Positions 35,901 to 59,900 of a stretch of DNA of 64,000 bases are shown here, one piece after another; the first letter of the stretch is position 1, and every line of letters starts with the position of its first letter. Source of the DNA: Amphiscolops sp. MND2022 (Eukaryota). The translations under genes and the position numbers were made by a program. The stretch spans positions 51,524,001-51,588,000 of the forward strand of contig OZ076409.1 in assembly GCA_964187785.1 (NCBI GenBank), read 5' to 3'. Below the pieces are notes generated by a model. It was not told the DNA's origin. It did not search any database and saw only the letters and a program-made list of their open reading frames with translations.

Positions 35901-38900
35901 GTTTTTGGAAGAATTAACCGGCAGAAACGAAGATAAGCATCTATTGGACCAACTTTTGATGAAGCTGTTGAAGTCATTGTGTGAGTTCAGTGGAGCTATA
36001 AAGCAAGGGTACGGTCCAGTCGATTGTCAGATAGAACTGGCGAGTACAATGTTCAACTCATCTTGTCAAACTCACGACCCGAAACTAATTTGTTCGCTTG
36101 TCAACGTTATTTGCAAATTGGGTTATGACTACATTTCCAGTTACAAGACTTCTGTTACTATGACAGCCCAATCAAATGCATCGAAATTTGTGAATTATCC
36201 TCCGAATGTATGTATAACTGCTTTCGAATCTCAAGAAAATAAATTAGCCGGGGTGAAAAAGTTAGCAGCAGACCAAAATGGGAGAGAGACCTTGCTGAAA
36301 CATTTGTTTAAATTAGCCCAGAAGTTAGTTTCCAGCAAAGTAAATCCTAGTCAGTTGTCAAATATATCCGGCGACTCAACAGTGGCTGACTTCATAATCT
36401 GTGATGATCAGTTACCGGTTGTGAACACTCTCCTGATCACGCTGAGTAGTTGTTCGTTACCTTGTGCTCCTGAGCAATTGGCTGGAGGAGGAGGAAGCTC
36501 TTTCATGCAGATCGATTCCTGGCTGGAAGAATTTAGAACCAATGAGGCGGATTTTGAAGAAAAAACTTTGGGTACGTCTGTTTGTTTTTGTCACGGTTAC
36601 TAGCTTAAATAATGCTGGATTTTGTTTGGGTCAATAATATATGTCCCTTTGGTCACTTGTGACAATGTTGAATACTTTTTAAACCCTGGTTTCCCTAAAA
36701 CTCAATACTTTCTGGAATTTTAAAATTTTCCCAGAAAAGTGTATCCGTCACCAAAGGATGCCTCGATGGTATTTTTTGCCCTGCTGTTTGACCTTTTCGT
36801 TTTTCAGGTGACCACATTCTGAAATTATTGTTTTGCATTGAGAACCATGCACATGAAAGAAAAGTGTTGCATCAAAGACTGGTGCATTCTCTCAATTCTT
36901 CGGTGGCTTTCCCCTCCACTCTCTCTCAGCCTGTTCTCTTCTTTCTTCTCTACCTCCTCAAGAGTTTTGAAGAGGTCCACATGTTCGCTAGTGTTGGTAA
37001 GTACGATTCATGGCGAAACTTTTGTATTCTTTTCAAATGACTAGACTAATTTGGTCATCAATGAAATCACAGAGGTGATTTTTTGTTTGTCCATAGATTC
37101 TTCTGCTTTATGCGATTTTATAGGTAGTCTCTAACATCAGTAAAATGTTTCCTCAAACTTTTACGGCTAGGCTACCCTTATGCTTAAAAAATTGTCGTGT
37201 TTAGTAACTTGATTCCAGCACACAATTATAGTTTCATGACCCGATTTAGTTTTTGTGCGATCCTCACTCGAGTGAAATCCAATAATTTTTTTATCAAGGT
37301 GGAGTCCAAGTGTTGGTGAACAAAATAGTGCGAAATTCAGAGACAGGGCCTGGCTTCAACTTCTCCATGCAGCCGCTTCATGTTCTCCAAAAGCTAACTC
37401 AATGTTTCGAAATCGACGTGCTTGATCTCGACCTGACTGATATGCCCAAAAATATTGGACCGAAAGGTTTGTTCGTTCAATAATCGAGTTTAGATGGCTG
37501 TCTTGCTATAATGTGTTTTGGCTTTCTGTACTTAAACAATGTAGAACGAAAAACTTTCCGTGAGCGAAGCAAACCGGAACTATTTACATTATTTATTCTA
37601 AGGTACTAAAACGTTAAACTTAGTTCCCTGTCGATAAATCCCAAAGCAAATTCAGTGACTTCGTGGATTATCCATTCTTTGAAAAAAATTGAGCACTCCC
37701 GGTTAATTGGTCTGTAGTTTTGAAATCCGAGATCCTGTGGCTTCTGTAGAATTTAAGCACACCCTAATGATGAATTCGACAGGATGCAAGAATTAAAAGT
37801 TGATACTTTTCAAAAAATGATGTTTTGAACTTTCACTTCATAAAGCAAGAAAATGCAGATCACTTTTTTCCAATGCTGAATTTGCATGTTATGTTTCAGC
37901 TTCCATTTCGTGTTCGAGCGACCCAACTGCGCAGTTGCCAGATGTTCTTCTGCAAGAGAACCCTCCTCATAAAAGAGCAAGAGCAGCTGCATGGACTTAC
38001 CATTTCCCAGCTAATGATGTGCCTGGCTACTGCTCTCTCTCCATCACTCTACCCCACCTCTCAGTTCTGCATTACGTAGAAGTGAGGGTACAAGTGCCTG
38101 CTATGGGAGTCAGTCATAGTTAGTACATTTAAACCTTTCTAATTGCGTTTCTAAAAGTACAACTAATCAACGCTATAACAGTTGAGGAATTTCTGGAAGG
38201 TTCCTTTGTCCGGCGTCCTGGGACAGTTTCCGTGATAGAGCCGTTAGCCACATCCGGAAACTTCAAAAATCCGGGAGTATACCCGGTACTAAGATTTTAC
38301 CCCTCAACATTTCAAGAAATTTTAGTGATATTTCATGACCTCAAGTTTGCTTGTTTGTGGCATTTTGAATGACGTTCATGATGAAAATGTATTTGCATTG
38401 CAAATTCATTTTAGATATGCCATCATCGATAAGCATGGACATAGTTCCTTCTCGTAACCGACTGGCCGAACCCGCCAGTTGTTCCACTCCACCCTTGATC
38501 ATTGGGAGGGCAGCTGGGGGCAACAGCTCCTTCATCCAACTTCGACCCCATGAGCCGCAATTGTGTGGAAGTTTGTTGCTCAGAATCTACCACCCGCCTG
38601 ATGCAAACAGCATCGGACTCAGTCACATCGCCATTTACGCAAAACCTGTGTTGTCTGATTTATCTCAAGCTCGAGGATTTGCTGATCATTTGATTACAAG
38701 GTGAGAAGAATCATTTAGAATCTCAAGAAATGGTATTTAGAAAATTTTGCTAGTTTCCTCTGACTGACTTTCCTAACGTCAAGAAACGTTAGGTTAAATA
38801 TTTTGGTGTTTATATATGCGACGAAATCACCGAGTAAAGAGACGGTTTTGTGAAATGAATTGGAAAGAATAAATTTAAAGCCTATTTTGAGTCTAGAGTT

Positions 38901-41900
38901 ATTCCGACCGCGATAGATGAAACGTTTCTCGTAGAGATTCCGCGGTTGATGGACTGTGAAAAGAAGATAGCTGTTTTTGCCATTGAAAGTTTTGATTATG
39001 ATCTTAAAAATTACTGTATCCTGAGGAGGCTCTCTATTTCAGCTTGCATGCTTTCAAACTGATCGAACATTGTTTGGAGACGCAAGTGCAGACCCTGTCC
39101 AAACGGAGACAAACCGCCTTTCCAACCGCCTCCAGTACTGAACTCTTGAACGTGCCATCTATTCTATCCGAAGGGCTCGACGCCCCCACCCGTGACAGGC
39201 TACTGTCGTCTTGCTTGTCCCTTCTATCTCAACCCACTGCTCAGCATTTCTTCATGTCTTTGAAAAAGACAGTCTTGTGTTTGGCCACTACATCTGTTCC
39301 GGAATCGGTGGCGTCAGGTTTGTAATGGAATTAACATTTGTTGTGTCAAATTATTTTACAAAGTTTAGTTGCATATTCGTAATTGTTTAAACGTTTCTCT
39401 TTTTAACCTCGACAGTACACCGAAAAGTCGAAAAATTGACAAAATTTTGGCAAAATTTTTTCAAAGCTTCCCCGAGTTGACAACCCAGGGAAATCCATCG
39501 GTGGCCACCGATCTTCCACCACAGTTCCATCGGTGGCCACTTCGGTGGCCGTAACAGTTTTTGCGGTGGCCACCGGTGGCCCACCGGTGGGTAACGGTGG
39601 CCACCGATGGGCTATAGGTGGGGATCGGTGGGCCACCGATGGACCATCGGTGGGCTACGGTGGGCCATCGGAGGGCCGTCGATGAAAGGTCCCCAAAGGT
39701 TGGTTACCCTCAGGGTTCGGAAAAAAAAGATTCTGTAAAAATTATGTTTTCAACGTTTTAAACATAAAAATTGCTTGTCAAAAACATGTCGAAAACTCGA
39801 AATCTTGAATTCATAAACACAAAATTCTAAAACATATCTAAAATGTAAAACTCTAAACTGAAAATCACTGCAAAAGTCTGAGACAAAATGCCAATGATCT
39901 TTCATTCTCTCCACAACTACAGCTTTTTCCCAGGGACATTGTTTGCATTTGTCTCTTTCATCATCTTGTGATCGTTCAAATTCGAGCCAAATTGCATCTC
40001 GTTTTCTTCCAGTGATAACCATTGGTAAAAAGCGCTGGAATAAGATCTAAAATCCTGAAAAAAATACCGGAATAAGATCTAAAATGACTGGAAAAAACAC
40101 CGGAATAAGAGCTAAAAAGACTGGAAGTACACCAGAAAAAGATCTAAAATCACTGGAAAAAAACACCGGAATAAGATCTAAAATCCCTGAAAAAACTACC
40201 GGAATAAGATCTAAAATGACTGAAAAAAACACCGGACTAAGATCTAAAAATACTGAAAAATCACAGGTATAAGATCTAAAATCACCGAAAAAACATCGGA
40301 ATAAGATCTAAAATGACTGGAAAAACACCCGAATAAGATCTAAAATTACCGAAAACCACTGGAATAAGATCTAAAATTACCGAAAAACCACTGGAATGAT
40401 ATAAAATCATAGGAAACTACACCGGAATAAGATCTGAAATGACTGAAAACCAGTGGAATAAGATCTGAAATCACCTAAATGAAACTGGAATAAGATCTAA
40501 AATTAATGAAAAATCACAGGTTTAAGATCTAAAATCACCGAAAAAGCATCGGAATAAGATCTAAAATGACTGGAAAAAACACCGACAGTAGATCTAAAAT
40601 CCCGGAAAAAAACACCGGAATAAGATCTAAAATCACCGGAATAAGATCTAAAATGACTGGAAAAAAACCGGCAGAAGATCTAAAAAAAAACAAAACAGAC
40701 TCAGATCTAAAATCACCAAAAAATATGCCAAACGAAAACTTTGAAATAACACTGGGAACACTGGAAGCAAGCAAGATCATTAGAACAGTCCAACAGAACG
40801 AAGTGAAGACCATTCCTTTTAAAAATGTTGGATAACTACCGAGGTCCATCAGAAAATCAATTCAGAACCGCGGAAAAATCCGTTTTTATAGTCTTGGTTG
40901 GTCAACTGAAATACAGTCGACACTAGCAGGGCTACCAACGAGCAGGTGCAAGGAAAAGCCCCATCCAAGATAGAATTTAGAAGAAACAAGCAAAAATTTC
41001 AGTTCAAATATTTGTCAAGCTCCATATAAAAAGAGATCTGGCGAAGAAGCAGTTTTCAATATCTGCCTAACATAAACATTAAAACAACACTGGGAACACT
41101 GGAAGCAAGCAAGATCAATAGAACAGTCCAACAGAACGAAGTGAAAACAATTCCTTTTAAAAATTTTGGATATCTACCGAGGTCCATCAGAAAATCAAAT
41201 CAGAACCGCGGAAAAATCCGTTTTTATAGTCTTGGTTGGCCAGCTGAAATACAGTCGACACTAGCAGGGCTACCAACGAGCAGGTGCAAGGAAAAGCCCC
41301 ATCCAAGATAGAATTTAGAAAAAACCAGGAAAAGAATTCAGTTTAAATATTTGTCAAGCTCCATATAAAAAGAGATCTGGCAAAGAAGCAGTTTTCAATA
41401 TCTGCCGAACAAACATTAAAATAACACTGGGAACACTGGAAACAAGCAAGATCATTAGAAAAGTCCAACAGAAGGAAGTGAAAACAATTCCTTTTAAAAT
41501 GTTGGATATCTACCGAGGTCCATCAGAAAATCAAATCAGAACCGCGGAAAAATCCGTTTTTATAGTCTTGGTTGGCCAGCTGAAATACAGTCGACACTAG
41601 CAGGGCTACCAACAAGCTGGTGCAAGGAAAAGCCCCATCCAAGATAGAATTTAGAAGAAACAAGCAAAAAATTTCAGTTCAAATATTTGTCAAGCTCCAT
41701 ATAAAAAGAGATCTGGCGAAGAAGCAGTTTTCAATATCTGCCTAACATAAACATTAAAATAACACTGGGAACACTGGAAGCAAGCAAGATCAATAGAACA
41801 GTCCAACAGAACGAAGTGAAAACAATTCCTTTTAAAAATGTTGGATATCTACCGAGGTCCATCAGAAAATCAAATCAGAACCGCGGAAAAATCCGTTCTT

Positions 41901-44900
41901 ATAGTCTTGGTTGGCCAACTGAAATACAGTCGACACTAGCAGGGCTACCAACGAGCAGGTGCAAGGAAAAGCCCCATCCAAGATAGATTTAGAAAACCAA
42001 AAAACTACAGTTTAAATATTTGTCAAGCTCCATATAAAAAGATCTGTGAATAAAGCAGTTTTCAATGTGCCTAACATGAACATTAAAATAACACTGGGAA
42101 CACTGGAAACAAGCAAGATCATTAGAACAGTCCAACAGAACGAAGTGAAAACAATTCCTTTTAATGTTGGATATCTACCGAGGTCCATCAGAAAATCAAA
42201 TCAGGACCGCGGAAAAATCCGTTTTTAAAGTCTTGGTTGGCCAACTGAAATACAGTCGACACTAGCAGGGCTACCAACGAGCAGGTGCAAGGAAAAGCCC
42301 CATCCAAGATAGAATTTAGAAGAAACAAGCAAAAAATTTCAGTTCAACTATTTGTCAAGCTCCATATAAAAAGATCTGGCGAAGAAGCAGTTTTCAATAT
42401 CTGCCTAACATAAACATTAAAATAACACTGGGAACACTGCAAGCAAGCAAGATCAATAGAACAGTCCAACAGAACGAAGTGAAAACAATTCCTTTTAAAA
42501 CTGTTGGATATCTACCGAGGTCCATCAGAAAATCAAATCAGAACCGCGGAAAAATCCGTTCTTATAGTCTTGGTTGGCCAACTGAAATACAGTCGACACT
42601 AGCAGGGCTACCAACCAGCAGGTGCAAGGAAAACCTCATCCAAGATAGATTTAGAAAACCAAAAAACTACAGTTTAAATATTTGTCAAGCTCCATATAAA
42701 AAGATCTGGGAATAAAGCAGTTTTCAATATGTGCCTAACATGAACATTGAAATAACACTGGGAACACTGGAAACAAGCAAGATCATTAGAACAGTCCAAT
42801 CGAACGAAGTGAAAACAATTCCTTAAAAAATGTTGGATATCTACCGAGGTCCATCAGAAAATCAAATCAGAACCGCGGAAAAATCCGTTTTTTTTGTAAA
42901 TTTGGTTGGCCGACTGAAATACAGTCGATATTAGCAGGGCTACCAACCAGCAGGTGCAAGAAAAACCCCATCCAAGATAGACTTAGAAAACCAAAAAACT
43001 ACAGTTTAAATATTTGTCAAGCTCCATTTAAAAAGATCTGGTTTTCAAAAGCAGTTTTCAAAATCTGTCTAGCCTAAACATTTAAATGGGACACAATCAA
43101 GATCATTAGAACAGTTGGTAGCGAAAGCGGATTAATGATAGCACCTTTGTGACTGTAAGAGAGTTATAGGAAACAAGACGGGAACGTCTCAAGTCAGCGC
43201 TATATCTAATGCTCAAATAATGGCGACAAAAAATTCGAGAAAAAGTCGCACAGTACCGAAAAAGACTGAAAGGGGGACCCTTTACACCCTACCGGTTTTG
43301 TAGGCTACGTTTAAAAAGCAAAAAAAACAAAGGGGGAACCTTTGGGATAACCTAGATGCACTTCCGGGGTATTCGTTAGTTTCCTTTAGTTGAACATACT
43401 GAACGTTAACGTTCGTCGCTTCGAGTCTGCTTTGAAAAAAAAAAGAAACGATTGACTGTAATAGCCGGGCTCTTTTATTAATAGAAGCTCCGACTAAAAC
43501 CGATGAAACCTTCTTTCAGTAAACCGTACTCTCAGAAGTTAATCATGGCTCTTTTCTGTTTTCCCCCCACCATCAAATTTTTTGGAAAATTAGTGATATC
43601 GTATAACAAAATGACTTGAATACAAACTAAAAAGCTTCAAAGTTACATTCATTCTTGATGTGACAGTTTAGGATTCAGATACAATTTTTGTTTTTACACT
43701 TTTTCATTACGTAGTCACGCATTTTTGACGAAAAAATCAACAGCTTCCTGTTTGGAGTCATCAATAAACACTTGATACGAACACAATTATAGTCAAAAAG
43801 CGTGAACAATGTTTTGTTAAAGCAAAACACAATTCCAATAGACGTTAACTTCCCATTATGAAAGAAGGTTTTACTTTCAATTAGGCTAGTCTAAAGTTTT
43901 TAAGGAAATTTACTTCCAAAAACTTTGGTGTTGGGGGGGGGGCGAATAGAAAAGAGCCTTACTCATGAATCTCATCGATGCTTTGTTTCAAAAACTCGCT
44001 GCTGTTGAAAAAAATGAACCATCAATCTTCACATCGATAACTTGAAGTTTGATAAAGATCTCATTTTTATTGTATTCAAGCATTTCAAAAACGTCATGTC
44101 TCAAAAACGAAGAGCTTTAGTTCAAACTATACTTCAAAATACAATTATTGGATCTATACAACAGCATTTGAGTTTTTATAACTCAGGGTTAAAAAATGGC
44201 ATGGTTTAAAAATGCTCATTCTACTTATTAACCACGTGCTCGTTTTATTTGGTGTTTGAAAAATGATTTCTTGGTAGAACAATAAATTGGAATTGCCTGA
44301 ACAAAAATAAATTATTTCGAATAACGAATAATAAAAAATCTACAAAATAGTTGACTCATAGTTGACATAGTTAATCAGTTGAGAAGGAAACGACCTTTTA
44401 GAGTGCTCCACAGTTGGATCCACTATTTGTGGCCGCGAAAGAGCGGCACAGATGCTAAGTAGGGTTTGATGAGAGACCTAATGAACATTTCGGCTCAAAG
44501 TTGAACAGCGAAAAAGATTATCATCAGGACAAGTAGTTCGGTTGAAGAAGAAACGACCAAATAAAGTGCTCCACAGTTGGATGCACTCTATTTGTGGTCC
44601 AGAAACAGCGGCACAGACGCTAGATAGAGTTTGCTATGAGACTTCATGAAAAACATTTTCTCGAAAGCTGAGGCCTCGATCATATCTTCGTTTTCCGTGA
44701 ATTCGACTTCATAGAAAAATTGCCAATTCGAGAAGTTCTGAAGTGTTAAGTTGTTCTTGGCAACCATCTTTTTCACTTGAGCGAACTTGAGTCCACCAGT
44801 GTAGCTATCTTCGCCCATTATAATGAAAAACACAATCTGAGCAAAAAAAAATCCCGACTCTTTTTTCACTTTGATAAAACTATTAGGACCATCGGAACAT

Positions 44901-47900
44901 CTTTTGTAGCATAGCGAGTCAAAGTAGACACCATCCACGAACGATCTAGAAAGAATTTGGGCGTCAGGAAAAAGTTCCAAGCTTCTGTGAATCTCTGGCA
45001 GCAGTAAAACATCTTTTGAGAAATTCTTCTCAGATGGTTCTTTCAAGTTTGACCATTCTTGCAACAATTCAGCTGCCCTGTCATTCTCAACGACACACGA
45101 AGCCAGCTCTTGAGCCTCCAAATATCGTCGGCAGATTACTGCACAATGTGAATGTGTGCCTGTAAAGCTTTCACTGAGAGTTCTATTAGCTGATTCAAAA
45201 GCCATTGCGGAAAACACAAAGAGTGGACCGTACGAACGGCATTGATGAGCGAGATGCCTCAAGCAGTGCACATTGATAGTCTCTGCAGTTTCAGTTTGAA
45301 AGATGTCTGTAACTGCACTACAATATCTTTCCAGTAAACGTTCAGCTAGTTCAATATCGGTTTCAGATGAGGACTCCAGAAGAATTCTGATACCGAAAAC
45401 CAAACATAGATGATCGTACAGAAAGTCAGCCAATCGATCTTTGAAAATGATGGGACTGACAAAAAGTAGGTAATTGAAAAACTCGTTGGCTTTGAAATGA
45501 CCGATATGGAAAAGGTCACGAAGATTGCGACCGTGTTCAACTACTTCCAAGGGTGCTCGGGTATCCTGAACCTCCTTCGATACAATGATTTTTTCTTGAG
45601 TGCTCAGACCTCTCCAAAAAAAATTCAGTATTTCCTTGAAGCAACCCAGAAGCACACAATGCATGTAATCTATTCCAGCACTGAGAGGTAAGTTTTTTAC
45701 TAGTCCGAAGAAAGCACTTTTCCCTTTAACACCGCAAACATTTGAAGGTGAAGCCGAGGCAATCAACGCTTCTGCAATATCAACATGTCTATCATTAAGC
45801 TCTGGCCTCCTAATTTCAAACGATTGGTTGAAAGGATAGTACGAATGAGTTCGATTGATAGTTACGCCTTCTATATTGCAGTAATTGCACCCAAAGAAAC
45901 CGTTGTGCTGAACCATGTTGAGTAGACTGCATTTAGCTATCAAGTCAGCAACGATGCCAATGACCTCAAAATTGACAATGTAAACTGATGAGAAATAATT
46001 GATCTCAATCTTTTTTTTGAGTTCTTTGAACAATCGAGGGACTATTTCGTCCCATGGGGGCTTGGACTGACCAACAAACAAGGCTGCTAAGCAAATGTTT
46101 TTTTGCGCCATTCGGAGTTTCGGTGGTAAGTTGGCAATAGCCAGCCAGAAGGGCCATAAACTTATATTATTCGAATTGACAAAACTGACCCCATCAGTAG
46201 ATAACATCAATTGAATTTCTAGTTCCTCTGAACATCGATGAACTAGTCGAACTTTATCTAGCGGAAAATCATTTACGACTGATATCTCCTTGTGCTCAGA
46301 ATACGAAAAAAGCGCTTCCAAATTACGCTCCAGGATGTTTTTCAAGAATTCGGTGAAACCCAGATAACAAATCTCACCTTGGCTGAGTTCTTGAGCTTCA
46401 AGAGACGTTTCATTCAAATGTTTTTCATTTTGTGAATGAAAGAGAATTTAGCGGGTAAGCAATTCTCTTCCGGAAGGAGACAATTTAAAAGATCATAGAG
46501 TCTCAGCATTCCGGTATCGCTGAGGTGGAGTTTGGAGCAGAAATGTCTCAGCAGAAGAGTAGCGTTGTAAACACCTATATCAGACCCTGAGTAAAGTGGT
46601 CGGCTCATCTGCTGGAGTGAACTTTCAGCAGCTGTGGGAAGAATAAAATCACAAGCCACTGTTGAAGCAATCTCAGAAAAATGCGGACTCTCAAAACTTT
46701 TGTTGGATAATGGAGAAGAGATTTTGACTAACTCAGCTTCAAAAGTTGAAGGGGGCGGTGATCTATTCGTTAGTTCGGAACAGTGTCTGGTCATGTCTAG
46801 ATGCTGATCAAATGAGGGTTCTTCGAGTGTACAATTCAAGTTTTCTTCGGATGTGGACATATTACATAAAATATCGCTTGATTCGTAGGCATCAGCGAAA
46901 GCGCTTATTTTATCAGCCCAATATAGACGCTTTGAAGAATGTTGAGAAACTGTTTTGCTTCTTTTAATAGCTGTGTCTTGCAAGTGGCAGTCAGCAACGT
47001 CGAACAATTCTTCATTGATGAGTTCAGACAAAAGGTTATCAGCGTACAAACAGTTCAGGGTATCGAATGCAGATGATGATTTGCAAGTGGCACAATGGCA
47101 GCTGTAGCACTCAAAAAAATCGTCGGAATACTTGACCAAAATTTCAGTACCAGGAAGTATAGTTTTTAGAGATCTTAGCTTCACAACTTTTTGATCGCTC
47201 CCGAAATCATATTCCGCGTTGGGATTGCAGTCAGAATTTACGAAACGCACAGCACCCAACATAAGGAACGATACTCCTGGCGTTGATTTTTTCCGAATTA
47301 CACTCAGGTCGGTGATATTGTCAGGGATTGCAGTTAGGAAGCCGAGTGGTGACGACGGAAATAAATCTCTGGCTCGGATTTTGACTTGACCGACATAAAT
47401 CATACGATAACCTCCAAAATCATCATGCCTTATGTCATAAACACCACTGAGGCTCTTATAACTCTCCAAACAAATGGCAAAACACGTCGAAAGCAGTTGA
47501 TCTTTCTCACATTGCTTCAAAAAAGCGCCATTAGGTTTCAGCCTCAATACTGTCATTGCGTCTCGACCTCCATATTCAATGACTGCTCGAACAGCCTGTC
47601 CGTCACAGTGACTGAGCGCTCTCCAGTCCATGTCTTTGGGTAACATCAGGACTCTCAGGACTTCTCAAAGAATAAAAACTGTGTGAGAGTTCACGAACAA
47701 TCAAACCTGAATTCAAACATGAGCTCACACATGAAAAAAATAACCTAAGGATACTACTATTCGAGTGATCTCAAAACCAATTGAGGGATTTATCGTTAGA
47801 AAAAACCGGTAACGAGTACTTTCTGGGAGAAACTGAACACTACGGCAAAAAGCAACAAGTCGGAAACTTCAGCGCTTCAATCAGGAATCTTTTCTTATGG

Positions 47901-50900
47901 GAAGCTCAAATCAAAACGTTTTTCGGTAAAGTTCCGCCCATTTGGGTTCGCCTTGACTGGATTTAAACTCTCAACGTCATTAAGTAGCTGGAAAGCAAAA
48001 CTTTTCATCAACAAGTTTTACAAAAAAACAATATTCATCAGGAAACTTGATTTCAAATATGAGTTCTCACAACTGATCATAACATTTCAAAAGATTAGTT
48101 TTATCACAACTGATCGTATAAACACAAAACCACAACGAAGCGCCACAATTGGCTGCTCAGTAGTCTACAAAGCACTTTCTGCACTCTCATTCTCAAATTC
48201 TTGATTACTCGTCTCTTTCTCAGACAGCTCAGTGGATGTCAACATGGAAGACTTTCGTTTCGACCCAGAGCTTTGCCTATTCCGTGTTGCCTCGTATTTC
48301 GCCTCCGGGCCCATCTTATTTACGCTGACTTTGGCCTCTTCGTATGCCGTCAGCCATTTGTCGCCATACTTCCCACGGAAAGCTTCTGATAAAAAGCGCC
48401 AGTATGAACAAGGATGAATTGATGAACCTCATGAAATACAGAAAAATCCTTCTGAAGAAAAGTCCTCAGAAAAATGACCTTCTGAGCTTCTTTGGCCTAA
48501 AGATAGCTGTCAAAAAACTATAGGATTACCCTTTTTTGTCCAACTTCAAAATAAAAGTTTGAGGGCAATCTGTCACTCACTTTTGACACTGATATTTTCG
48601 TGTCAAAAAGAATTTTAATCATAGATCATCGATGTGTCACAAAAATATCTTGGAGTGGTCTTTTTTAGAACAATGATAACATCTCTTGATACTCGATGGA
48701 AGCGTTTTTCTCTACTTGCCTTTGAAGCATTCTTTACGTCGAGGGCTAAAATCGGGACGGCCTGTTCTTTTTTCCGGAGACATCATGCAATTCTCGATTT
48801 CGTCTTGGGAGTAAAGAGAAAGCATTATAAGGCGTCCATATGCCTTCGGATTTTTGGCCTTGAATGCCAACAAATTTTCACCCTCATGTAAAAGAACTGG
48901 CTTGTCTCCGGTATCCTCTTCGATAGGCGCAGTGAGACCAAGGCGTCGAACAGATTTTGTCTACAAAGATCGAAAACCGAGAGGTGATATCAACCAAGCA
49001 AAAATGAGCGAAAAACCATAGTTAAAATAACTTTTCACAAACCAAATCAGAGATGACCTTCTGGAATCTCGAACTCTCGTCGGCATTTTTATTGGTGAGC
49101 GTATTAAGCGACCTATTGAAAGTTTTCACAGTGCTTTCTAGTTGCCCAACTACAGATGACAAGTCCTTGACTGCATCTGAGAGCTCGTGTTCGTTGGTTT
49201 TACTGACCTAAAAAGAAACGAATCTAAACGTCTGCAACAGACACCAGATATTTAGAGAATAGGACCAACTTTCGGAGTAACCGGATCGAAGTTCTCCACG
49301 TCTAGAGGAGTCAAAACCTTCTTTTTCACGGGAGGAACGGAGCTTGGCGTTATTGTTGGACGCTTTTTCAACTGAGAACTAGTCTCCTGAGAAGATAGCC
49401 CGGGAACGTTTTCCTGAAACCACAAACATTGTCGAAATGCAGAGACCTCAAACCATTTGAGCACAAATCAGCGATTGACTGGCGCCACAATTGGCTGCCG
49501 GAAACAATTCGTTGATTCGAATATAACATAGTCCAAAGTCACCCAGCAAACTATTCAGACAGTCTTTCAAAAAATGCTCACTTCAAATTGGACGTTGTCT
49601 GAAGGTTCTACACGGTATCCCGACTGGTGGTTCAATGTAGCCATTGTCGAAACTGGGGACGAAGAGCAAACCAAGGAGAAATCAAGGTCCGGTTCACCGC
49701 TCTGCTCCTTGCAAGCCAAAGAAAGAAGTGAGAGGCATTTTTCCATGTAGGACTTCAGTCCTATGCCTTTAATCCTGCCCGTATACCTGACAACGGTAGT
49801 TTTTTCCAAAAACTTGAATGTGAAGACGTCCCCAACTTTCGCAAGCGCACGCTGAGCTAAGTTTGCTTCGGTCCCTGAGAACCCGGCAGACACAATCATC
49901 ACTTTCCCGTCTTCGAAGAAATACACTAACCAGTGTAAGTCTTTTATTTTTGACTTGAACTCCTCTTGCAAATCAGCGAAATCGTCGCTTCTGTGAGGCC
50001 TAGTTCTTCGTTCAGCAAACGAATTCATTGTTATATCTATGGTTAATTTAAAACAGAAAAATGATTACAGGACATTGATGGAAACTTCGGAAAATGAGTA
50101 CGGTGCAAGTCTTAACAAGCCGGGAACGGCCCAAGTCGGCGCCATATCTAAGGCTCAAAAATAGCAAAAGGACTTCAAAGTGTCAAGTTTTCTCATCTAC
50201 AGTACCCGCGTAAGGAAAAAACTGAAAATCGATTTTTTTGAGTTTTTATTCGAATTTTTTTGGTCTCCGGTAAGTCGCAGAGTGCTGAAAAATATAAAAG
50301 GGCTCGTGGGAGTTTTTGAACATCCACATTTCGATACATATCCCGGTAACGGACTAACAGGAACCTGCTAATTCGATTTTTGTCCAATCAGAGCGCGAAT
50401 ATTTTTTTGGAAGGTTTACACTTGTCACACATTACGCGCATTGATAGGACGTTACACTAGTTGACACAGCTTCGTACTTTGACTAGTTCACACCATTGGA
50501 TAGTACAGTAAATGTAAAAGGGGCCCTTTGGGAGATTTTCAACATCCATTCTTTTGCGAAATTGAAAAAAATGAAGGACCGTTTGGAGATATTAAAAAAA
50601 ATTGCGAAAAAAGTCTCACAAAGCCGAAAAACCTGCACAAAAATTTTTTTGATCAAGGGCGGGCGCGAACCTACGTGCTTCTGCTTGGCAGACCACAAAA
50701 AAGCTGTAACCTTCATGTCAAGTGCCAGTAGGAGTAGTGTGGCAAAGTTTAGTGTTAGTGCAAGTCAGCTTATAAAGCTTAGTTCTTTGGCCTTAAAAAG
50801 TCACTACTATAGTCTGCGTTTTTCCACGAAAGGCGCCGACTGAAAAATCGACGAGATATCCTTGCAAGCCGGAAAAATTTCCAGCAGTAGCAAAAATCTC

Positions 50901-53900
50901 CATAAAATATATTCCCGATTTGCCAACAAAATATGACCCTGGCATGATTCCCTCAAATACCAAAAATTGAAATACAAAGAGTTCCAAGAACCGACTAACC
51001 TTTTGAGCACAGTTCGACGAACCCAAGTGACGCCACATTTGGCTGCCAAAAGGGTTTTGAAAAAATAACATTGTAAAAAAGTAATTTTAAAACACTTTCA
51101 ACAATGCTTCAAAAGTTTCACAAAAGGTCTAAGATATAAATCAAAATGTTTAACTAGTTAAAGTCAAATGAATTACATATTACATTAACGTAATGACATC
51201 TTGTTCGCTCTCGTGAACTTTCTAGTTATTTAGTTTCAAAGACACATTCAACCAAACTGTATTTTTCACAAAACAAACAAATACAAGCAAACAAAAATTA
51301 TAAAAACTAATTTGTAAGCTCTTTCTGGTATTGGTTAACCTTACGCAGAGACTCTTTGATACAATAGTCAAGGAAACGTCGATAAGAACCCTCGACCAAG
51401 TGGACCCGATCCTTGGAGTACTGCAAGTCGATATCACAGTCAATAAAAAAGCTACGGAAACATTTTCTAAGTCTTCCATTCAAAAGATCACAGCCCAGTC
51501 GCCCATTGTCTCTTGAAATAACTCGAAGTACCAGTCCAATTTTTTTCTCAACACAAAACGTCATGAACTCTTTTATGGATCGGAAAGCCTCCCCGACTGT
51601 TTTGGGAATATCGGGTTTACGCGGATGGTTGGAAACATCATTGCCGCCCATCTCCACCAAAATCAAATCGAAACTGTCAATGTCATCACATTATTTTTTC
51701 CAATCAGTGGCCTTCAAACCACTTATACCTCTAAAAACAAGTTGTTCATCTGTTGAAACAAAGGCCATCCTGGCCACGTGACTGTCGCCAAATACAAGAA
51801 CACGCATCTGAAAAATTTCTATACAAGCTTGGTTCTAAGTGAAAAAAGTCGTTAATATTGACAAGCCGGGAACGACCCAAGTCAGCGCCATATCTAAGGT
51901 TCAAAAATAGCAATGGGACAACAAAGTGTTAAGTATTTTCGTCTACAGTACCCAAAAAAACCGAAACTGTAAAAACGCACGATTCGAACTAACCGAAAAG
52001 AAAACGCAAAAAGAAAACCATTAAGTAATACATGCTTTGTGAACTGTGAGACAACCAATAGGAAATACCATTTGTTAAGCAATAAAAAATCATTCATTAT
52101 AAACGAAGAAACTCAGTTTGGAGAAGCAATAAACAATCGGTCCTTAATTAGTTTTTATTTACCTCACCGCCCCTTGAGGCAGATCTACACCTTTTGCCTC
52201 GGGTTGACATTCGCAACCGTCAGCGAGGTCCATGGAACCCCCTCTGAAAAGAACAGGGCTAAGAAAAAATACTTACCTTTTGCAATTATTTCGGGGTCCC
52301 GACTGTTGACGTAGACTTCATTAAACACACTTCAGCGCGTTCATGTTAATAGAAAAAATTTTTAAAATGTTAAATGCGAGGCAAATTGCAAGAAAAGTAA
52401 ATGCAGACAGAAGAATACTTGGCCAACTTGATACCTTCAACCCTGAAACGATGACAAACCAGATTAAAAAGCGGTGGAACGTTAGATTAAGCAATAACCC
52501 AATTGCCAATTTGGTATTGAGAGTTCACGAAAAAGAAATGCTGCCGAAATGGTTGAGTAAATAGCAAATGAACCAAATGGTGCAGCTGCTGTCAGAACAA
52601 AGTCATCTTGGATTCTTCAAATTCAAAATTGGCCGGTGTTTCACCCGATTATGTACATGTATGATAGAAGATGAAACTGCAGACCACTTCTTAAAAATTT
52701 GCGCTTTTTATGAAAATTTGAGAGAACTCTGGCAGCCTAAATCAATACAAAATTTAGTTGACAACAACAAAGAAGACTGGAAAAACGCATTTAGATTTGT
52801 AGAGGCAGCGAAACGACTATAAACTTCTGAGTAAACTACCGGAGAACGAAGGAGGTGTGTGTATGATTGGATGATTACGATGATGAGAAGCGGAAGATCG
52901 ACTCGAGAAAAAAGTCCGCCGTAGAATTATAAGAAAGTCCGCTCAAATTGTGATATCTGTCATTCCTAATTAATTAATTTAATTAATTCCCAGAAAACAA
53001 AAAAATATAAATAAGGACCGTGCGAACTGGAACCATGTAAAAAAAGATCAAAAATTACCGAAAAACCAGTGGAATAAGATCTAAAATTACCGAAGGACCA
53101 CTGGAATAAGGGTGCCTATTCATACAGCAGAAAATGAAAATTTGGTCCCATACAGCCGAATTCAAATTACTAGCTTTTAGTGCTGTTACAGCCAATATGT
53201 TGGAACTTGATTTGTTTAAAAAGGTTTGAATATTTGTTGTATGGCTCGGTCGCTTCGCTCCCTTCGCCAAGTAGCAACATTGAGGCATGGCCATATGGCA
53301 CGTCGCTCCGCTTCGCTTCGCTCCTGCATTTAGGGCACTAGGGGTATGTGAACATAGCTAACTACGTTATAATAATAATTCCGACAAAATCTGACACGCG
53401 TTTTCAGCTTAGTGAATTCAATTCGATTTCAAATTTCAGCCAATCAGATTGCAACATAAAGAAATATTCTACTGTTTGAGACCAATTTTTCATTTTCTGC
53501 TGTTTGGTACTTCGGCTGTTTGGGAATTCCCCGGAATAAGATCTAAAATTACCGAAAAACCACTGGAATGATATAAAATCATAGGAAACAACACCGGAAT
53601 AAGCTCTGAAATGACCGAAAAACCAGTGGAATAAGATCTGAAATCACCTAAATGAAACCGGAATAAGATCTAAAATTACTGAAAAATCACAGGTATAAGA
53701 TCTAAAATCACCGAAGAACCACTGGAATAAGATCTAAAATTACCGAAAAACCACTGGAATGATATAAAATCCTAGGAAAAACAAAACAATTGAACCTTTC
53801 TGATTGGTTAAAAATTGAAATTCAACCTTGCGTTATTTTCTCTCTTGCGCTGAATCATTGTTACAGCCAATATGTTGGAACTTGATTTATTCGAAAAGGT

Positions 53901-56900
53901 TTGCATATTTGTTGTATGGCTCGGTCGCTTCGCTCCCTTCGCCAAGTAGCAACATTGAGGCATGGCCATATGGCACGTCGCTCCGCTTCGCTTCGCTCCT
54001 GCATTTGGGAAACCACATTCTTGATGACGAATAGCAGTCGCCGATTTGATCATACATTTACATCTAAAATTACCGAAGAACCACTAGATTATGATCAAAA
54101 TTTACCGAAAAACCACTGGAATATAAAATCACTGGTAAAAAAAGCGCTGGAATAAGATCTAAAATCTCTGAAGAAAACACCGGAATAAGATCTAAAATTA
54201 CCGAAGAACCACTGGATTATGATCAAAATTTACCGAAAAACCACTGGAATATAAAATCACTGGTAAAAAAAGCGCTGGAATAAGATCTAAAATCCCTGAA
54301 AAAAATACCGGAATAAGATCTAAAATGACTGAAAAAAACACCGGACTAAGATGTTAAATGACTGGAAAAAACACCGGAATAAGATCTAAAATCCCTGAAA
54401 AAAATACCGGAATAAGATCTAAAATGACTGGAAAAAGCACCGGAATAAGATCTAAAAAGACTGGAAATACACCAGAAAAAGATCTAAAATCACTGGAAAA
54501 AAACACCGGAATAAGATCTAAAATCCCTGAAAAAAATACCGGAATAAGATCTAAAATGACTGGAAAAAACACCGGAATAAGATCTAAAAAGACTGGAAAT
54601 ACACCAGAAAAAGATCTAAAATCACTGGAAAAAAACACCGGAATAAGATCTAAAATCCCTGAAAAAAATACCGGAATAAGATCTAAAATGACTGAAAAAA
54701 ACACCGGACTAAGATGTTAAATGACTGGAAAAAACACCGGAGTAAGATCTAAAATCCCTGAAAAAAATACCGGAATAAGATCTAAAATGACTGAAAAAAA
54801 CACCAGAAAAATCTTAAATCACCCAAAAAAAATCACTAGAGTAAGATCTAAACTCACTGGATAACCAGTGGAAAAGGTTTTCGGACACGATTTGAAACTG
54901 CAAACAGGGTTTACAGCTACTTCAGAACCGGTCCTTATAATTTTCCCATTTTGTTAGGCTTTGATGCATTAAGGTCGAGAATTTTGTCTCAAGGTATTTT
55001 GTGTACCAACATTCAGTTGCTAGAAATGTTGAACGAAATTTTCACTTTCGAAATTTTCGAATTTTCCACCGATGGTCCATCGGTGGACCACCGGTGGGAA
55101 AGCCTCCACGTTAGCTAATTTCCCCCCACCGATGGCCATTGGTGGTCCACCGATGGCCACCGATGGATTTCCCTGGGTTGTCAGTACGGGTCATTTCTTC
55201 ACAAATAATAGCCGCAGCTCCAATCGGTTTTCTGTTCCTGAAAGCCCTTTACCTAAGCTTTTAAATGCACACTAGTTAGGTCGCGAGTTGGCGCCACTTG
55301 TTGGGGTGAGAGCGCCACCCCGGCTGCGCCGGGCGTTTCAAATGTCAGTTGAACTCATAACTGAAGCTTCATTGGAAAAACTTCTATATGCGTTTTCAAT
55401 GGTGGCAAACTGTGTTACTAGAGTGGGAAGTAACTTAGCAAACAGTTACTCAGTTATTGAGAAACAAGCCGGGAACAAAGTCGGCGCCATATCTAAGGCT
55501 CAAAATTTAAAAGGGGGACCCTTCGGGCTTTGTGAAACTCCAGCTGGTTGCAAAAAATTTTTTAAAAATGAAGGGGGGACCCTTTGGAGACATGAAAAAA
55601 TATCCGAAAAAATTTTTTAATGAGATTTTTGAACAGTGTCACAGTGCCGAAAAATGTAAAAGGGGGACCCTTTGCGATTTTTTGACATCCATTGTGTTGC
55701 AAAGCATCAAAAAAAATTGAAGGGGGGACCCTTTGGGGAAAAAATTTCAATCCAAAAAGTTTCAAAAAGTCGCATAGTTCTGAAAAAAAGTGGGGATTCT
55801 TAGTGTGATTTCGAGGTTGTGGACGTCTGTTTTGTTTTTTCTTTTCGTTTTGGACGCTTCTGAGGTTGGAGTTGTTGAGGTTTGAAGTTGTGGAGGTTGT
55901 TGAACAAATGAACAAAAAGTGGACCTTTCGTGTCTCAAAAAAAAAACTACCCACTGTAATAGTCTGGCACATTTTCTACTAAAATGCGCCGACTAAAAAC
56001 GAATTTTCTGAAATGTACTTTTTTGCAATTTTTTTCAGTTACTTTTTTGCCAGTGGCTCCGAAAAAATCTATATTGACACAAATAACAATTCACACCAGA
56101 TAGTCCAATAGATTGTCGATAAGAAAAACAATTTTTCGTTTTCCTCTATGCTTTTTGCGTGTCGTAATTTATTTATTGCGAACAAAATCGCTGTCCTCAT
56201 TTGAGGACGAAATCACTGTCGAGGTTAAAAAAAATTTTGAAGCTGTTGATTTTCTATCGTTGCTGGTCATTGTCAGGTGTCACTTGCTTCTTGAAGTTGT
56301 TTGTGGTCAGAATTTTTGGTATGGTGTGAAAAGCCGAGTAGGCTCATCTTGTGTTCGAACATGATCATGAACATCTTCAAACCATGAAAAACTTTGTTAT
56401 AGATCACGGCAATTTGCAGCAAATGTCCGGTCAACTTCAAAGCGAAGAGCAGCAAGCAGAAACTGTGCAGCATGTGATTGTGTTTTTGCTGAACAGCTTC
56501 GTGAACGGAACTGAATCTCTGACTGATGTCTATGTCGATGAAGTGCTGGATCTCTTGTATTCCTTGTGTACCCAAGGAGACAACAGAAGAATTCTTTTGA
56601 ATAGGTTCATATAACTGTTTGTGAAAACTTCGGAATTCATGAGACTTTTGTTCTCTATCACTCTTCACGTGGCAGTGTTTTGATAAATGAGTTTGCTCAT
56701 GGCATAGGCAATCATTTCGAGTAAACGCCTTGATTTTGAGTTTTGACAGTTGTGGGCTTACCTTTTTTTGTTTTTGTTTCGTGATCGTGCCATGACCTCT
56801 TATTACCTAATTACTAGTCTAATCGCTTCGTTTCTATTTCAGGATGTCTGTGTTAGTGTCGTGGTTGGAAGCCAATTTAGCCACAATTTCGGAAAGTCCT

Positions 56901-59900
56901 CGAATATCCTTAGTCAGCGTGGCTCACTTGATTCATGCTATATCTGCCATCCTGTGGCAACTCCACTCCGTTTTCAGTGCATCTTTGGGCGCCTCGAATC
57001 CAATGCCCATGGTTGTGACTGCTCAAAATTTTACCAATATATGTCAACATGTTCTTAACAGTGGTCTCATTTCTGAAAACAACATATCTGCATCAACTGT
57101 TCTCAAAAACTCTTTCGATTGGCTTTTGTGTTCTTATACACACATGCATCCCTCATTCTTAAAAACTCTTTTGCGTCTGCTTGGATGTCGGGATTTGCAA
57201 ACCCAGGACTTGAACTCGACAACTGGTGGTCCCATGAGTCCTCCCTCGCCTGTACCTTCGTTTTCAGCATCCGGAGTGGTTGTGAACGATGACGCGAAGC
57301 AGCAAAAAAGTTTCCTTGCAAAGCAATGGTGGGCGAACCTCGGAAGAAGTCATTTGGCTACCTTGCATCATTGTCTTCTAGATACAAGAGTTTTGGATGT
57401 ATTCAGGAACTTTGCGCCTGTTGCGGATATGTTCTCGCTCTTGATCGATCTGTCATTGGCTGATGAATCGAAGAGTTCTTCAGCTAATGAAGACTCAACT
57501 TGCGAGCAAACGAATATGAAAACCTTAATTCGGCTCTTGGAATTTTTAACTAACATCAGTGAAAACAACCCCAGGGCAAAACGATGGCTGGGTCAAGCTG
57601 AGAAAACAAGATTCTGGTCGCCATTGCTGACATCACTATGTTACGATCAATCAAGGCAACATAGTTTGAATCTGACTGAAGCTGCTCTGCGTTTTTTCGA
57701 AACAGTGGCCGATGATAACACCAACAACCAGAGAAATTTGGCTGAAATTGTCAGCCAACTCATATCGCAGAAAAAGGACGCTTTGAACAGTTTTGTAAAG
57801 CAGTTGATTTTGAACGTGTTCTTGAAGGAAGAGAGAGTTCTGGTTGTCATCAAATCACCAAAGGTTATTGAATTTTTATGATGAAAATTGAATTCCAATA
57901 CCTTTTTGAATACAATACGGCAAATGAGTTTTCATGGGTTTCTCCAATGAGTTTTTCAAACGGCTTGAAGGATTCTCATCAAATATTGTTAGATCGCTGA
58001 CCAATCTCAATAATTCACTATCGCTATTTTTATCCGTTTCGATCATTCTAGGAAAAACTGATGAAGTGGAGTAGCGGTTTCGACCTGCCTGCGATGGGAC
58101 ACCCGAAATACGGAATTGGGCACCATGTTGTGTACGGGAAAATAGACGCAGAGTCCACAATTGAGTCTCTTGTGTTGGAGATCGTTGATCAGAACAAGTT
58201 GAAAAGCGATTCGCCCGTAATTGTCAGTGATCCTGCTTCTTCCACCTCGAAACAAGACACGGCTTCAACTAGCAGCAATACCACGAATTACACTGTGCTA
58301 TCCAAATCCAAAATGAAGTCTTCAAAGGGTTTGCTCTGAATTTTATTTGTGAAATCGTTGAATATTGACACAGAACTTCTTATAGGAAGAAACTTTAGAA
58401 AATGGAAAAGTGTCATTTATGAAATATATATAACAAAAAATGCCCGCTAACCACCGTGATATTTTACGCCCTGGTTTTTTAGCGACAGTATCTTTTCATA
58501 TTTCGAGCGTAGCCGATACACTTCGAACTTGCACAAAATGATCAGAAAAGTTGAAATTTTTGACACTTTTCAGTTCATTCCAGGCACTTTATTCCAGCAA
58601 AACCTTCGATTTCTATATCGAAGCTACAATAAGTAACTAATATTTTTCAATAAATTCTTTGGATATTCATACCCACGAAAACATGATGAAAACAAGATGT
58701 ACCAAACTTGCAAAAATGGTCGAAAATTGGAAAATTCGATTATTTCATACATATGCTACGACCCATATTTTATGGTTTTTGAATTTTGTTGAAATCATAA
58801 AACTGAAATAACGCAGCTATTTTAGTATTTTTCTTTTCCATATTGAAGTAGGGCAAAAAATAATACTCATTTAATATTAATGCAATAATCTGATGAAATA
58901 ATGGTCTCATATGCTATGCATTATTTTATGATGAGATCATGTGCCTTGACTTGTGTATTCTTCTATTGATTGAAATATCTTACTTCGAGAATTTAGTAGC
59001 TGTAAAGTATTAATTGAATCCGAAGCTCTCAGTTTTGATGTCATTCTGAAGCGGTGATATGATAATCTTATTGTCGGCAATCAATTTTCAGCTGTTTCTA
59101 GTTGGTGCATTTTGTAAAAAAAATGTACCCGACTGTTAGTGACTAGTTTTTTAGTCGGCGTTTTCGACGGAAATGCATGACTCTTACAGTGGCTAGTTTT
59201 TTTCGTCAGTTCAACGCGATCGGTCCACTTTTTCTGTTCATTCAGATTTTTTGTGTTCAGACTTTCAGAAGCAGAACGTAGGGTTCGAGTCTCACACTAA
59301 ACCACAAGTTTTTTAATGTTTCCAAAAGTAGAGGGTAGACCAAAGGGTCCCCCCTTTGGATTTTTTTCGGCATTATGCGACTTTTTTTGAAAATTTTTGA
59401 ATTCTATCAAAGGGTACTCCCTTGAAGTTTTTGAAGTTGTCGGTTTGTAAAAAAAAAACGTTTAATGAGCCTAAAGGGTCTCTTTGGGTGTTTCGGCATT
59501 ATGCGACTTTTTTTACCAAATACTTTTTTGAAAAATTTTAATTTTTGTCAAAGGCAAATTAGTTTTTTCTGATGTTTCCAGTGCAGAAAAAACTGATTTC
59601 GAGTTTCGGGGAAAACCCTTTCGGGATTTTTCGGCACTGTGCAATAAATGAGAAATTTCACAATAGGCTGAGTTTCCTTGAATATTATTGAGCCTTGGAT
59701 ATGACGCCGACTTGTGCCGTTCCCGGCTTGTTTTAAATTTCTTTCATGAGGCCACAGAATGTATGCGAATGGCCCATTTTGAACAAGAGATTTTGTTCAC
59801 GCAGCTAGTAAGTAAGAATGGGCGCTTCCCAAGCAGATAGACATCGGCTCGATTCCTGCCGCGGACGGAATATCTTTGTTTGCAAACCCTTGACGTGTCA

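Follow-up and report, generated by a model that had tools for sequence, protein, structure and literature searches.

A SUV4-20-type SET domain fused to the transposase of a giant CMC-type DNA transposon in Amphiscolops sp.

The transposase of a 15.7-kb CMC-type DNA transposon in the genome of Amphiscolops sp. MND2022 is fused to a SET domain of the SUV4-20 type, and in intact copies the two form one open reading frame (ORF). This fusion is the strongest result of the analysis. The element lies in a 64,000-nt stretch of contig OZ076409.1 (the window) and is a member of a large family in this animal genome. Capture of SET domains by DNA transposons is already known (HarbingerS, MuDR, Plavaka). 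Literature searches gave no description of a fusion of SUV4-20 with CMC that is in frame and clade-wide; cases may exist in Repbase reports or among the 823 chromatin-TE fusions tabulated in 10.1101/2021.11.30.470311 (Supplementary Table 6). Chromatin enzymes carried by transposons have so far mostly been recorded as annotations. In this animal genome the SUV4-20 domain has been retained on the transposase throughout a whole CMC clade, across families with saturated synonymous sites. Two active-site positions have changed systematically and intact copies exist, which provides a directly testable case of how a DNA transposon may use H4K20, a mark that governs the choice of repair and reflects the state of replication.

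Boundaries and gene content of the element

The element begins with CCCGAG and ends with TACGGG, TC flanks it on both sides and CCACCGATGG-type subterminal repeats are present at both ends (Table 1). A reading made from the sequence alone (hereafter the sequence-only reading) had proposed these termini, the TC duplication, the subterminal repeats and three genes all on the minus strand, and each was borne out. It had also described imperfect terminal inverted repeats (TIRs) of about 35 bp; they are imperfect, and their length is 51 nt at 84% complementarity; none of the other inverted pairs in the region 38000-57000 (207 in all) is as long. The first 34-mer of the left TIR has 144 genome matches and a 34-mer of the right TIR has 98, while the reversed controls have none. 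The 25-base junction of the empty site was detected 331 times with at most two mismatches and six times exactly (control, 0). Two of these loci have the flanks directly joined, with the 2-bp target-site duplication (TSD) as their overlap, as predicted for an empty allele. Short TIR pairs carry a 2-bp TSD in 20/20 cases and a 3-bp TSD in 0/20.

Eight complete elements with TIRs and a 2-bp TSD were found in four divergent families (A, B, C and G), and the gene order SGNH, BEN gene, SET-transposase is common to all of them. Ends of the CCCG..CGGG type are found in these families and in family D, one element of which has flanks that do not match. Nested repeats lie between the TIRs and the genes and had cast doubt on their linkage, which is now accepted because all three genes lie inside TIR- and TSD-bounded elements in four families. 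These common boundaries, with the gene order, rule out separate nested insertions with other termini or independent of one another. Together, the ends, the TSD, the empty site and the shared order establish the mobility of the element and the linkage of its genes.

A copy designated C13 is 98.9% identical to the window copy over 15.8 kb. The copy in the window is broken: its SGNH gene contains a premature stop, and a 1-nt frameshift lies between SET and transposase. The dN/dS values suggested as a check were obtained between two family-A copies and amount to 0.23 for SET, 0.17 for SGNH and 0.25 for the N-terminus of the accessory gene; in comparisons between families synonymous sites are mostly saturated. 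Purifying selection acts on all three genes.

Table 1. Features of the element copy in the window (positions counted from the first letter of the window)
Feature	Positions	Strand	Basis or remark
Left TSD copy (TC)	39469..39470	.	Sequence; empty site in genome
Left TIR, CCCG terminus	39471..39521	+	51 nt, 84%; 144 matches to first 34 bases
Left subterminal near-palindromic repeats, CCA-N4-TGG type	39495..39684	.	Predicted BEN-binding sites (putative binding)
32-33-bp tandem repeat, 18.8 copies	40037..40641	+	Unit recurs at right end, direct orientation
338-bp tandem array, 7 copies	40736..43087	+	Element component; related array in family D copies
SET-transposase fusion gene, ~1020 codons	44585..47646	-	1-nt frameshift at 46424 in this copy
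SUV4-20/KMT5B-type SET and post-SET zinc cysteines	47068..47646	-	N-terminal part of fusion
Accessory (BEN) gene	48165..50028	-	Exon model: 50028-49582, 49413-49270, 49207-49043, 48960-48720, 48385-48165
Nested high-copy repeat, between SGNH and accessory genes	50114..50847	.	Common to family A copies
SGNH/GDSL hydrolase gene (GDS, G, GGND, DxxH)	51307..51807	-	Stop 51693-51691 in this copy; open in C13 and C4 copies
Right-hand arrays, 32-33-bp repeat	53044..54859	+	Repeat analysis
Right subterminal repeats	55058..55166	.	Sequence
Right TIR, CGGG terminus	55140..55190	-	98 genome matches
Right TSD copy (TC)	55191..55192	.	Sequence

The SET-transposase fusion and its active site

In the SET-transposase ORFs of the window, Pfam detects SET (28.6 bits), Transposase_21 (30.1) and DUF1258 (41.7), each above its cut-off. 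The SET/transposase junction is in frame in the C13 copy, both parts lie in one 1028-aa ORF in family B, and five loci have single ORFs of 945-1099 aa with SET and transposase Pfam domains. Examination of 20 further CMC-transposase loci revealed a SUV4-20-type SET just 5' on the same strand at every one; 14 of them had been without a SET match in an earlier listing. One family (L140, L151) carries a second, degenerate SET copy.

The 1028-aa protein contains the motifs TDG 491, D575, CxxC 594, HxxxH 803 and FES 826, and thus has C(2)C and H(3-4)H located after the second D and ahead of the final E, as described for CMC/CMCT transposases. With the DDE transposase, Transposase_21/DUF1258 and the 2-bp TSD, the CMC assignment of the sequence-only reading is supported. 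By the account in PMC12730594, CMC/CMCT elements (EnSpm/CACTA, Mirage, Chapaev) encode a DDE transposase whose last E is preceded by C(2)C and H(3)H motifs, and have TSDs of 2-5 bp and usually, not obligatorily, CA..TG termini. The present element has this transposase and a 2-bp TSD in common with them, as well as subterminal repeats that accompany short TIRs, a second gene for DNA binding and many non-autonomous derivatives. It differs in its CCC..GGG ends and in the addition of an N-terminal SUV4-20-type SET and an SGNH cargo gene.

A profile of nine SET sequences was compared with the PDB. Its ten best matches were SUV420H1/H2 (E 1.5e-15 to 1.6e-14) and the next family followed at 1.3e-6, which agrees with the SUV4-20 (H4K20) type proposed earlier. 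The element SET matches the host SUV4-20 gene with E 4e-19; the host genome has one canonical SUV4-20 motif match, in which the equivalents of His183 and Phe191 are both kept. An AlphaFold model of the SET from six sequences had a pLDDT of 42 and was set aside.

Residues were tallied by pattern count in the 58 readable motifs of 64 SET loci (six were not readable). The equivalents of Ser161 and Tyr217 are each kept in 52/58 and the post-SET zinc cysteine motif in 49/58; Asn182 is also kept. The His183 position is replaced in 52 of the 58 (Ser in 41, Ala in 10, Pro in 1) and is His in the other six, and Tyr occupies the Phe191 position in 50. The roles of Ser161, Phe191 and Tyr217 are those given for SUV4-20 in PMC3874154, which reports that the equivalent Phe-to-Tyr change sharply reduces SUV4-20h1 activity. 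On these residue counts, canonical H4K20me2/3 writing by the element SET is therefore doubtful, and the domain may use another substrate, or none. Nucleosome anchoring of SUV420H1 is ascribed to arginines after the SET (10.1101/2023.03.17.533220). Basic patches also follow the element SET; they do not allow an alignment and might instead serve as nuclear localisation signals.

The BEN accessory gene and the SGNH cargo

The accessory gene is predicted to have five exons encoding 406 aa with no internal stops, the fourth intron of the model being GC-AG. Its product consists of a conserved N-terminal domain, a middle part that looks coiled-coil-like by eye and a C-terminal domain whose assignment as BEN is supported indirectly, by homology and fold. 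Pfam gave no match on single exons of the gene, and a homolog search with the BEN exon found no protein. The profile of the window-side BEN exon matched BEND6 best in the PDB (E 0.1), a match lost with a broader profile. For the fold comparison a family-H relative was used, which is only 25% identical to the window exon (model pLDDT 82.7). The four best of 48,161 chains in VIA were BEN domains, with Z 6.8-7.2 (all below 8) and rmsd 2.8-4.0 over 85-101 aligned residues. Foldseek E values were above 0.001; Atlas gave 0.93, with 18/30 matches in clusters with 12-25% PF10523 members and a recognition score below the strong range. The subterminal repeats are of the CCA-N4-TGG type and differ between families; Drosophila Insv is described as binding CCAATTGG palindromes (PMC4281564).

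The SGNH blocks Ser (I), Gly (II), Asn (III) and Asp-x-x-His (V) are present in families A, B, C and G. Pfam PF00657 exceeds its cut-off of 23.6 only in the family-B relative, at 27.1; the C13 copy, which is 99% identical, reaches 17.8 bits. The gene is exchangeable, optional cargo, because the canonical form occurs in 23/64 SET loci and an unrelated gene takes its place in 10/64 (families D and F). The two were never found together, and the alternative gene gave no Pfam or convincing PDB match. Cargo ORFs of families E and H resemble SGNH in motif spacing by eye, with hhalign E of 0.13 and 0.61, HMM E of at least 0.68 and no usable Atlas match. SGNH genes also form tandem arrays lacking the other two genes (L109 and L126, 12 copies). 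No tie of SGNH to chromatin was found.

Transposon-borne SGNH/GDSL esterases with intact catalytic residues are described in retroelements (ZfL2-1 ORF1p, PMC3905857; bdelloid LTR and Penelope-like elements, PMC5408684), and ZfL2-1 ORF1p is reported to bind lipids. Those elements have RNA intermediates, whereas the gene here is stand-alone, often tandemly duplicated and carried by a DNA transposon. No description of SGNH in a DNA transposon was found in the literature, where Repbase reports and the supplementary table cited above may again hold cases; its cargo range is extended here from retroelements to DNA transposons.

Possible roles and relatives of the fused SET domain

The reading that we prefer, with no better than even confidence, is that the copy in the window, itself defective, belongs to a cut-and-paste element of autonomous, CMC/EnSpm-like type whose SUV4-20-derived SET likely docks the transposase on nucleosomes via histone H4 lysine 20, its methylation activity being probably altered or weakened. 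The SET would act in cis wherever the transposase acts, in donor or target chromatin, and the H4K20 state would govern nucleosome access and break repair at those sites. The BEN protein may bind the palindromic subterminal repeats and help to pair the ends, like TnpA in En/Spm. The active-looking SGNH, an optional cargo, would have a separate job, most likely binding or hydrolysis of lipids or small esters, as for retrotransposon esterases.

An unlikely alternative, although the best of those considered, is a fully active writer whose H4K20 methylation around excision and insertion breaks would favour 53BP1/NHEJ repair or damp the element's own expression. The retained Ser161, Tyr217, Asn182 and zinc cysteines fit it, as do the six loci with His, the reported recruitment of 53BP1 by H4K20me2 (PMC13639273) and the precedent of SETMAR, whose SET is said to aid NHEJ (PMC2847698). 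The changes at His183 and Phe191 argue against it, and NHEJ at the donor site would presumably forfeit the copy gain offered by sister-chromatid repair. Somewhat less likely still, the fused SET could read H4K20 that is not methylated, which marks chromatin just after replication. Excision would then occur only after the fork, the sister chromatid would restore the donor, and the element would time its copy number by a histone-based clock, in an animal whose DNA carries little methylation.

The SET may also act on a non-histone substrate. It is improbable that transposition is switched on and off by SET-dependent methylation of the transposase or of the BEN protein: a remodelled methyl pocket with the lysine channel kept is compatible with it and a cis fusion might favour self-modification, but no target motif was identified and no precedent was found in the literature.

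The sequence-only reading had viewed the trio as a toolkit in which BEN targets the element while SET and SGNH remodel chromatin and lift silencing like plant VANC proteins. It is true that the three genes are linked and that families A, B, C and G conserve them, and TnpA of Spm and VANC are reported to mediate anti-silencing in plants (10.64898/2026.08.24.746577), so that an anti-silencing role of BEN only is possible. A joint role of the trio was not supported and we consider it quite improbable: SGNH is swapped in families D and F, the transposon esterases already known bind lipids, and the SET sits on the transposase, not on the sequence-specific BEN protein. Moreover, the literature connects H4K20 methylation by SUV4-20 with heterochromatin and the choice of repair (PMC13639273; 10.1101/2023.03.17.533220), not with activation. 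An exon-by-exon search of the genome gave five DNA-methylase matches (four examined) with no DNMT1/3 among them, and two such genes on chromosomes resemble DNMT2. With these matches and a CpG observed/expected ratio of about 0.9 (0.91 in the element), there is no evident substrate for VANC-style DNA demethylation. The 1.2-1.8-fold excess of CpG transitions between copies in long comparisons is inflated by the site definition and was not counted as methylation evidence.

Least probable of all is a SET that merely stabilises or oligomerises the transposase N-terminus as a structural relic, with SGNH as hitch-hiker: loss of the canonical His, the degenerate second SET and the SGNH-only arrays would suit it, but families whose synonymous sites are saturated still share the Ser and Tyr that face the substrate, and SGNH has a dN/dS of 0.17 and intact catalytic residues.

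Among known systems, SETMAR/Metnase likewise has a SET fused N-terminally to a DDE-type transposase; it is described as a host gene that arose by domestication, contains a mariner domain and acts on H3K36 (PMC2847698), whereas the present SUV4-20-derived fusion resides on mobile, multi-copy CMC elements, as its mobile mirror image. HarbingerS, Phytophthora MuDR and SET-bearing Helitrons, compared here through the descriptions in PMC12730594 and 10.1101/2025.02.11.637652, are also DNA transposons with a SET methyltransferase domain. They belong to other superfamilies, and in HarbingerS the SET is by description an accessory gene, not in frame with the transposase. Closer in layout is the red-algal Plavaka with PAG1-3, a giant (17-19 kb) EnSpm-lineage element in which several genes form a conserved cassette, a SET domain and a protein predicted to bind repeats among them (10.1101/2025.02.11.637652). 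As described there, PAG2 is a separate gene combining an N6-adenine methylase with SET, the binder is ParB-like instead of BEN, SGNH is absent and the host is an alga, not an animal.

Homolog searches returned two and three unnamed proteins only, at 62-98% identity. In a viral scan, five of 258 candidates had SET alone and none had the transposase; in a metagenome scan, one of 35 candidate stretches carried a SET-transposase, on a contig of 1.7 kb; it is frameshifted and, over the aligned segments, 40-58% identical to family E. In an unrooted SET tree, families A-H are grouped (94/92), tyrosine-recombinase-linked SETs are grouped (96/96) and the host gene lies on a long branch. A second, tyrosine-recombinase-like element group with SUV4-20-type SET domains is present in the same genome.

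Boundaries and gene linkage

The element ends in 51-bp terminal inverted repeats (TIRs) flanked by a TC duplication. The ends and the duplication proposed in the sequence-only reading were confirmed; that reading had put the TIRs at about 35 bp. The insertion site is a high-copy repeat, and the joined empty site gave 331 matches in the genome. At two of these the match extends into the flanking sequence on either side, where the two flanks overlap by 2 bp, which supplies the predicted empty allele and shows that the element boundaries are exact. On C13 a further full copy (98.9% identity over 15.8 kb) has its own target-site duplication (TSD), CT, and a third copy, on C4, has CA. In the 1.07-Gb genome, 34-mers of the TIRs gave 144 (left) and 98 (right) matches and the reversed controls 0; most of the left/right pairs listed are spaced 0.2-1.9 kb apart. 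All 20 short pairs picked from the match lists have a 2-bp TSD and none contains gene sequence. They are therefore non-autonomous derivatives.

The element lies between host-gene exons at about 34648-39317 and 56342-58339 of the window (plus strand), whose match to BIRC6 is weak (PF12356, E 0.0014, under the cut-off). The high-copy repeat around the element is also interrupted by a second insertion at about 55468-55994. A broken ORF at 52325-52822 (plus strand) looks by eye like the 3' end of a non-LTR retrotransposon; a Pfam search with it gave no match.

All three genes lie on the minus strand, as had been claimed. The C13 copy reads in frame across the SET/transposase junction that is frameshifted in the window copy and carries a separate 7-nt frameshift further downstream. 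The complete fusion is a single 1028-aa ORF in a family-B copy.

Genes of the window copy
Feature	Position	Strand	Remark
SGNH gene	51807-51307	-	premature stop at 51693-51691
Accessory gene		-	predicted five-exon model, 406 aa, stop-free
SET-transposase	47646-44585	-	1-nt frameshift at 46424

Genome searches gave 38 SGNH and 151 SET matches, many loci carrying both, a few kb apart on one strand. The fetched loci group into families, with SET identities to family A (that of the window copy) of 26-66%. Eight elements, from families A, B, C and G, are delimited by TIRs with 2-bp TSDs and share the gene order SGNH, accessory gene, SET-transposase. The linkage of the three genes is thereby established, and these common boundaries and gene order rule out separate nested insertions. 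Subterminal repeats are family-specific: CCACCGATGG (A), CCACCGGTGG (B), CCATCGATGG (C, G) and CCATGCATGG (E).

Family A has three occurrences of the motif GCAGCCAA(A/T)TGTGGCG (window 48156, 49498 and 51046, minus strand): past the SGNH gene, inside the first accessory intron and ahead of the SET gene. In family B, related CAGCCAAT sites lie ahead of all three genes. Either could be a promoter or a BEN site.

Core genes and cargo

A transposase search of the genome returned 152 matches. SET lies directly upstream of the transposase in all 20 further loci fetched, 14 of which had no SET match in the earlier genome search for SET. Four long ORFs tested each contain both domains (SET above the cut-off in two). 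Cargo was counted in 64 SET-bearing loci picked from match lists, over 9-37 kb per locus and with some profile seeds taken from the counted loci themselves. Transposase was found in 60/64, the accessory gene in 54/64 and canonical SGNH in 23/64. An E- or H-type ORF, whose homology to SGNH is unproven, was present in 12/64 and an unrelated gene in 10/64, never together with SGNH (0 among 64); 19/64 had no recognised cargo, which may fall outside the examined stretch. The core pairs the SET-transposase fusion with the BEN gene, and SGNH is a frequent, exchangeable passenger.

SGNH keeps its catalytic Ser, Gly, Asn and Asp/His in families A, B, C and G, has a dN/dS of 0.17 and is frequently duplicated in tandem. 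Known transposon SGNH proteins come from retroelements and bind lipids (PMC3905857, PMC5408684). Nothing was found linking SGNH to histones, and its proposed role as a chromatin-modifying esterase was not retained.

Eight SGNH genes in tandem precede a decayed element (L104-L105, C8:5312000-5331999), and 12 stand in tandem at L109+L126 (C4:74918000-74937999) with no other module gene within 20 kb. In families D and F the place of SGNH is taken by an unnamed gene with two exons and roughly 180 aa, often duplicated (for example L115:3198-3533, L046:1338-1709); by eye only, it appears RRM-like. One family (L140, L151) has two SET segments before the transposase, the second degenerate.

SET domain and BEN protein

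In the PDB, all ten top-ranked matches to the SET profile are SUV420H1/H2. The host genome has a single canonical SUV4-20 motif match; this gene lies on C12, has several exons and retains Ser, Trp, His, Phe and Tyr. Work on Suv4-20h2 assigns substrate-nitrogen binding to Ser161, a place along the lysine channel to Tyr217 and the methyl pocket to Phe191; in Suv4-20h1, Phe to Tyr sharply lowers activity (PMC3874154). Among 58 element SETs with readable motifs, which come from related loci and do not count as independent events, Ser and Tyr are each retained in 52, the zinc motif in 49 and His183 in 6; 50 have Tyr in place of Phe191. The SET domain is under purifying selection. A lysine channel that is kept next to a changed methyl pocket suggests that the domain probably still recognises its substrate while its chemistry is altered.

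Multi-copy elements at L055 and L057-L060 (for example G000:C12:24718800-24728799, C1107:197000-206999, C9:54500-64499) carry a SUV4-20-type SET in which the His is retained. The ORF after this SET looks by eye, from its R..K..HxxR..H..Y spacing, like a tyrosine recombinase; it has no tyrosine-recombinase Pfam match. Their SETs group separately in the SET tree, and they are possibly Crypton-like.

The second gene of En/Spm-type elements is expected to be a TnpA-like partner. Single accessory exons gave no Pfam match. In family H the accessory domain lies in one ORF, and its predicted fold (pLDDT 82.7) has as four best structural matches the BEN domains of NACC1, BEND6, BANP and Bsg25A. Foldseek placed Insv and BEND6 on top, but with E above 0.001, and Atlas agreed with BEN at moderate strength. 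The window exon shares 25% identity with this domain, with Arg, Glu and Pro positions in common, and the accessory profile of families A-E has BEND6 as top PDB match (E 0.1). Since Insv is reported to bind CCAATTGG (PMC4281564), binding of the BEN protein to CCA-N4-TGG repeats is a reasonable prediction by analogy.

Known relatives and possible mechanism

The SET-transposase element is real, and it shares SET carriage with published HarbingerS, MuDR, Helitron and Plavaka elements (PMC12730594, 10.1101/2025.02.11.637652); SET-transposon fusions were also counted in a 172-genome survey (10.1101/2021.11.30.470311). A literature search found neither a clade-wide in-frame SUV4-20-transposase fusion nor SGNH cargo in a DNA transposon. 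Beyond the host genome, searches turned up only protein relatives (62-98% identity) and a single short contig.

Most likely, the transposase would engage nucleosomes through H4K20 by its fused SET, assisted by the BEN end-binding protein, with SGNH doing a separate job. H4K20me0 is described as the mark of new histones, favouring homologous recombination, and me2 as recruiting 53BP1 (PMC13639273). If SET reads H4K20me0, excision would be timed after replication and copy number would rise; if it is a writer, repair would be pushed toward end-joining. The data fit both versions alike.

The suggested analogy of the toolkit with plant VANC anti-silencing is weak, because both DNA-methylase genes found on chromosomes look like DNMT2, CpG is not depleted and the SET enzyme does not sit on the sequence-specific protein. 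The methylase search went exon by exon and could miss a DNMT1 (4 of 5 matches examined). Beside these two genes, the methylase loci (L123, L124, L125) include a third match on a small contig, which is possibly foreign DNA (50% GC vs roughly 39% in the window).
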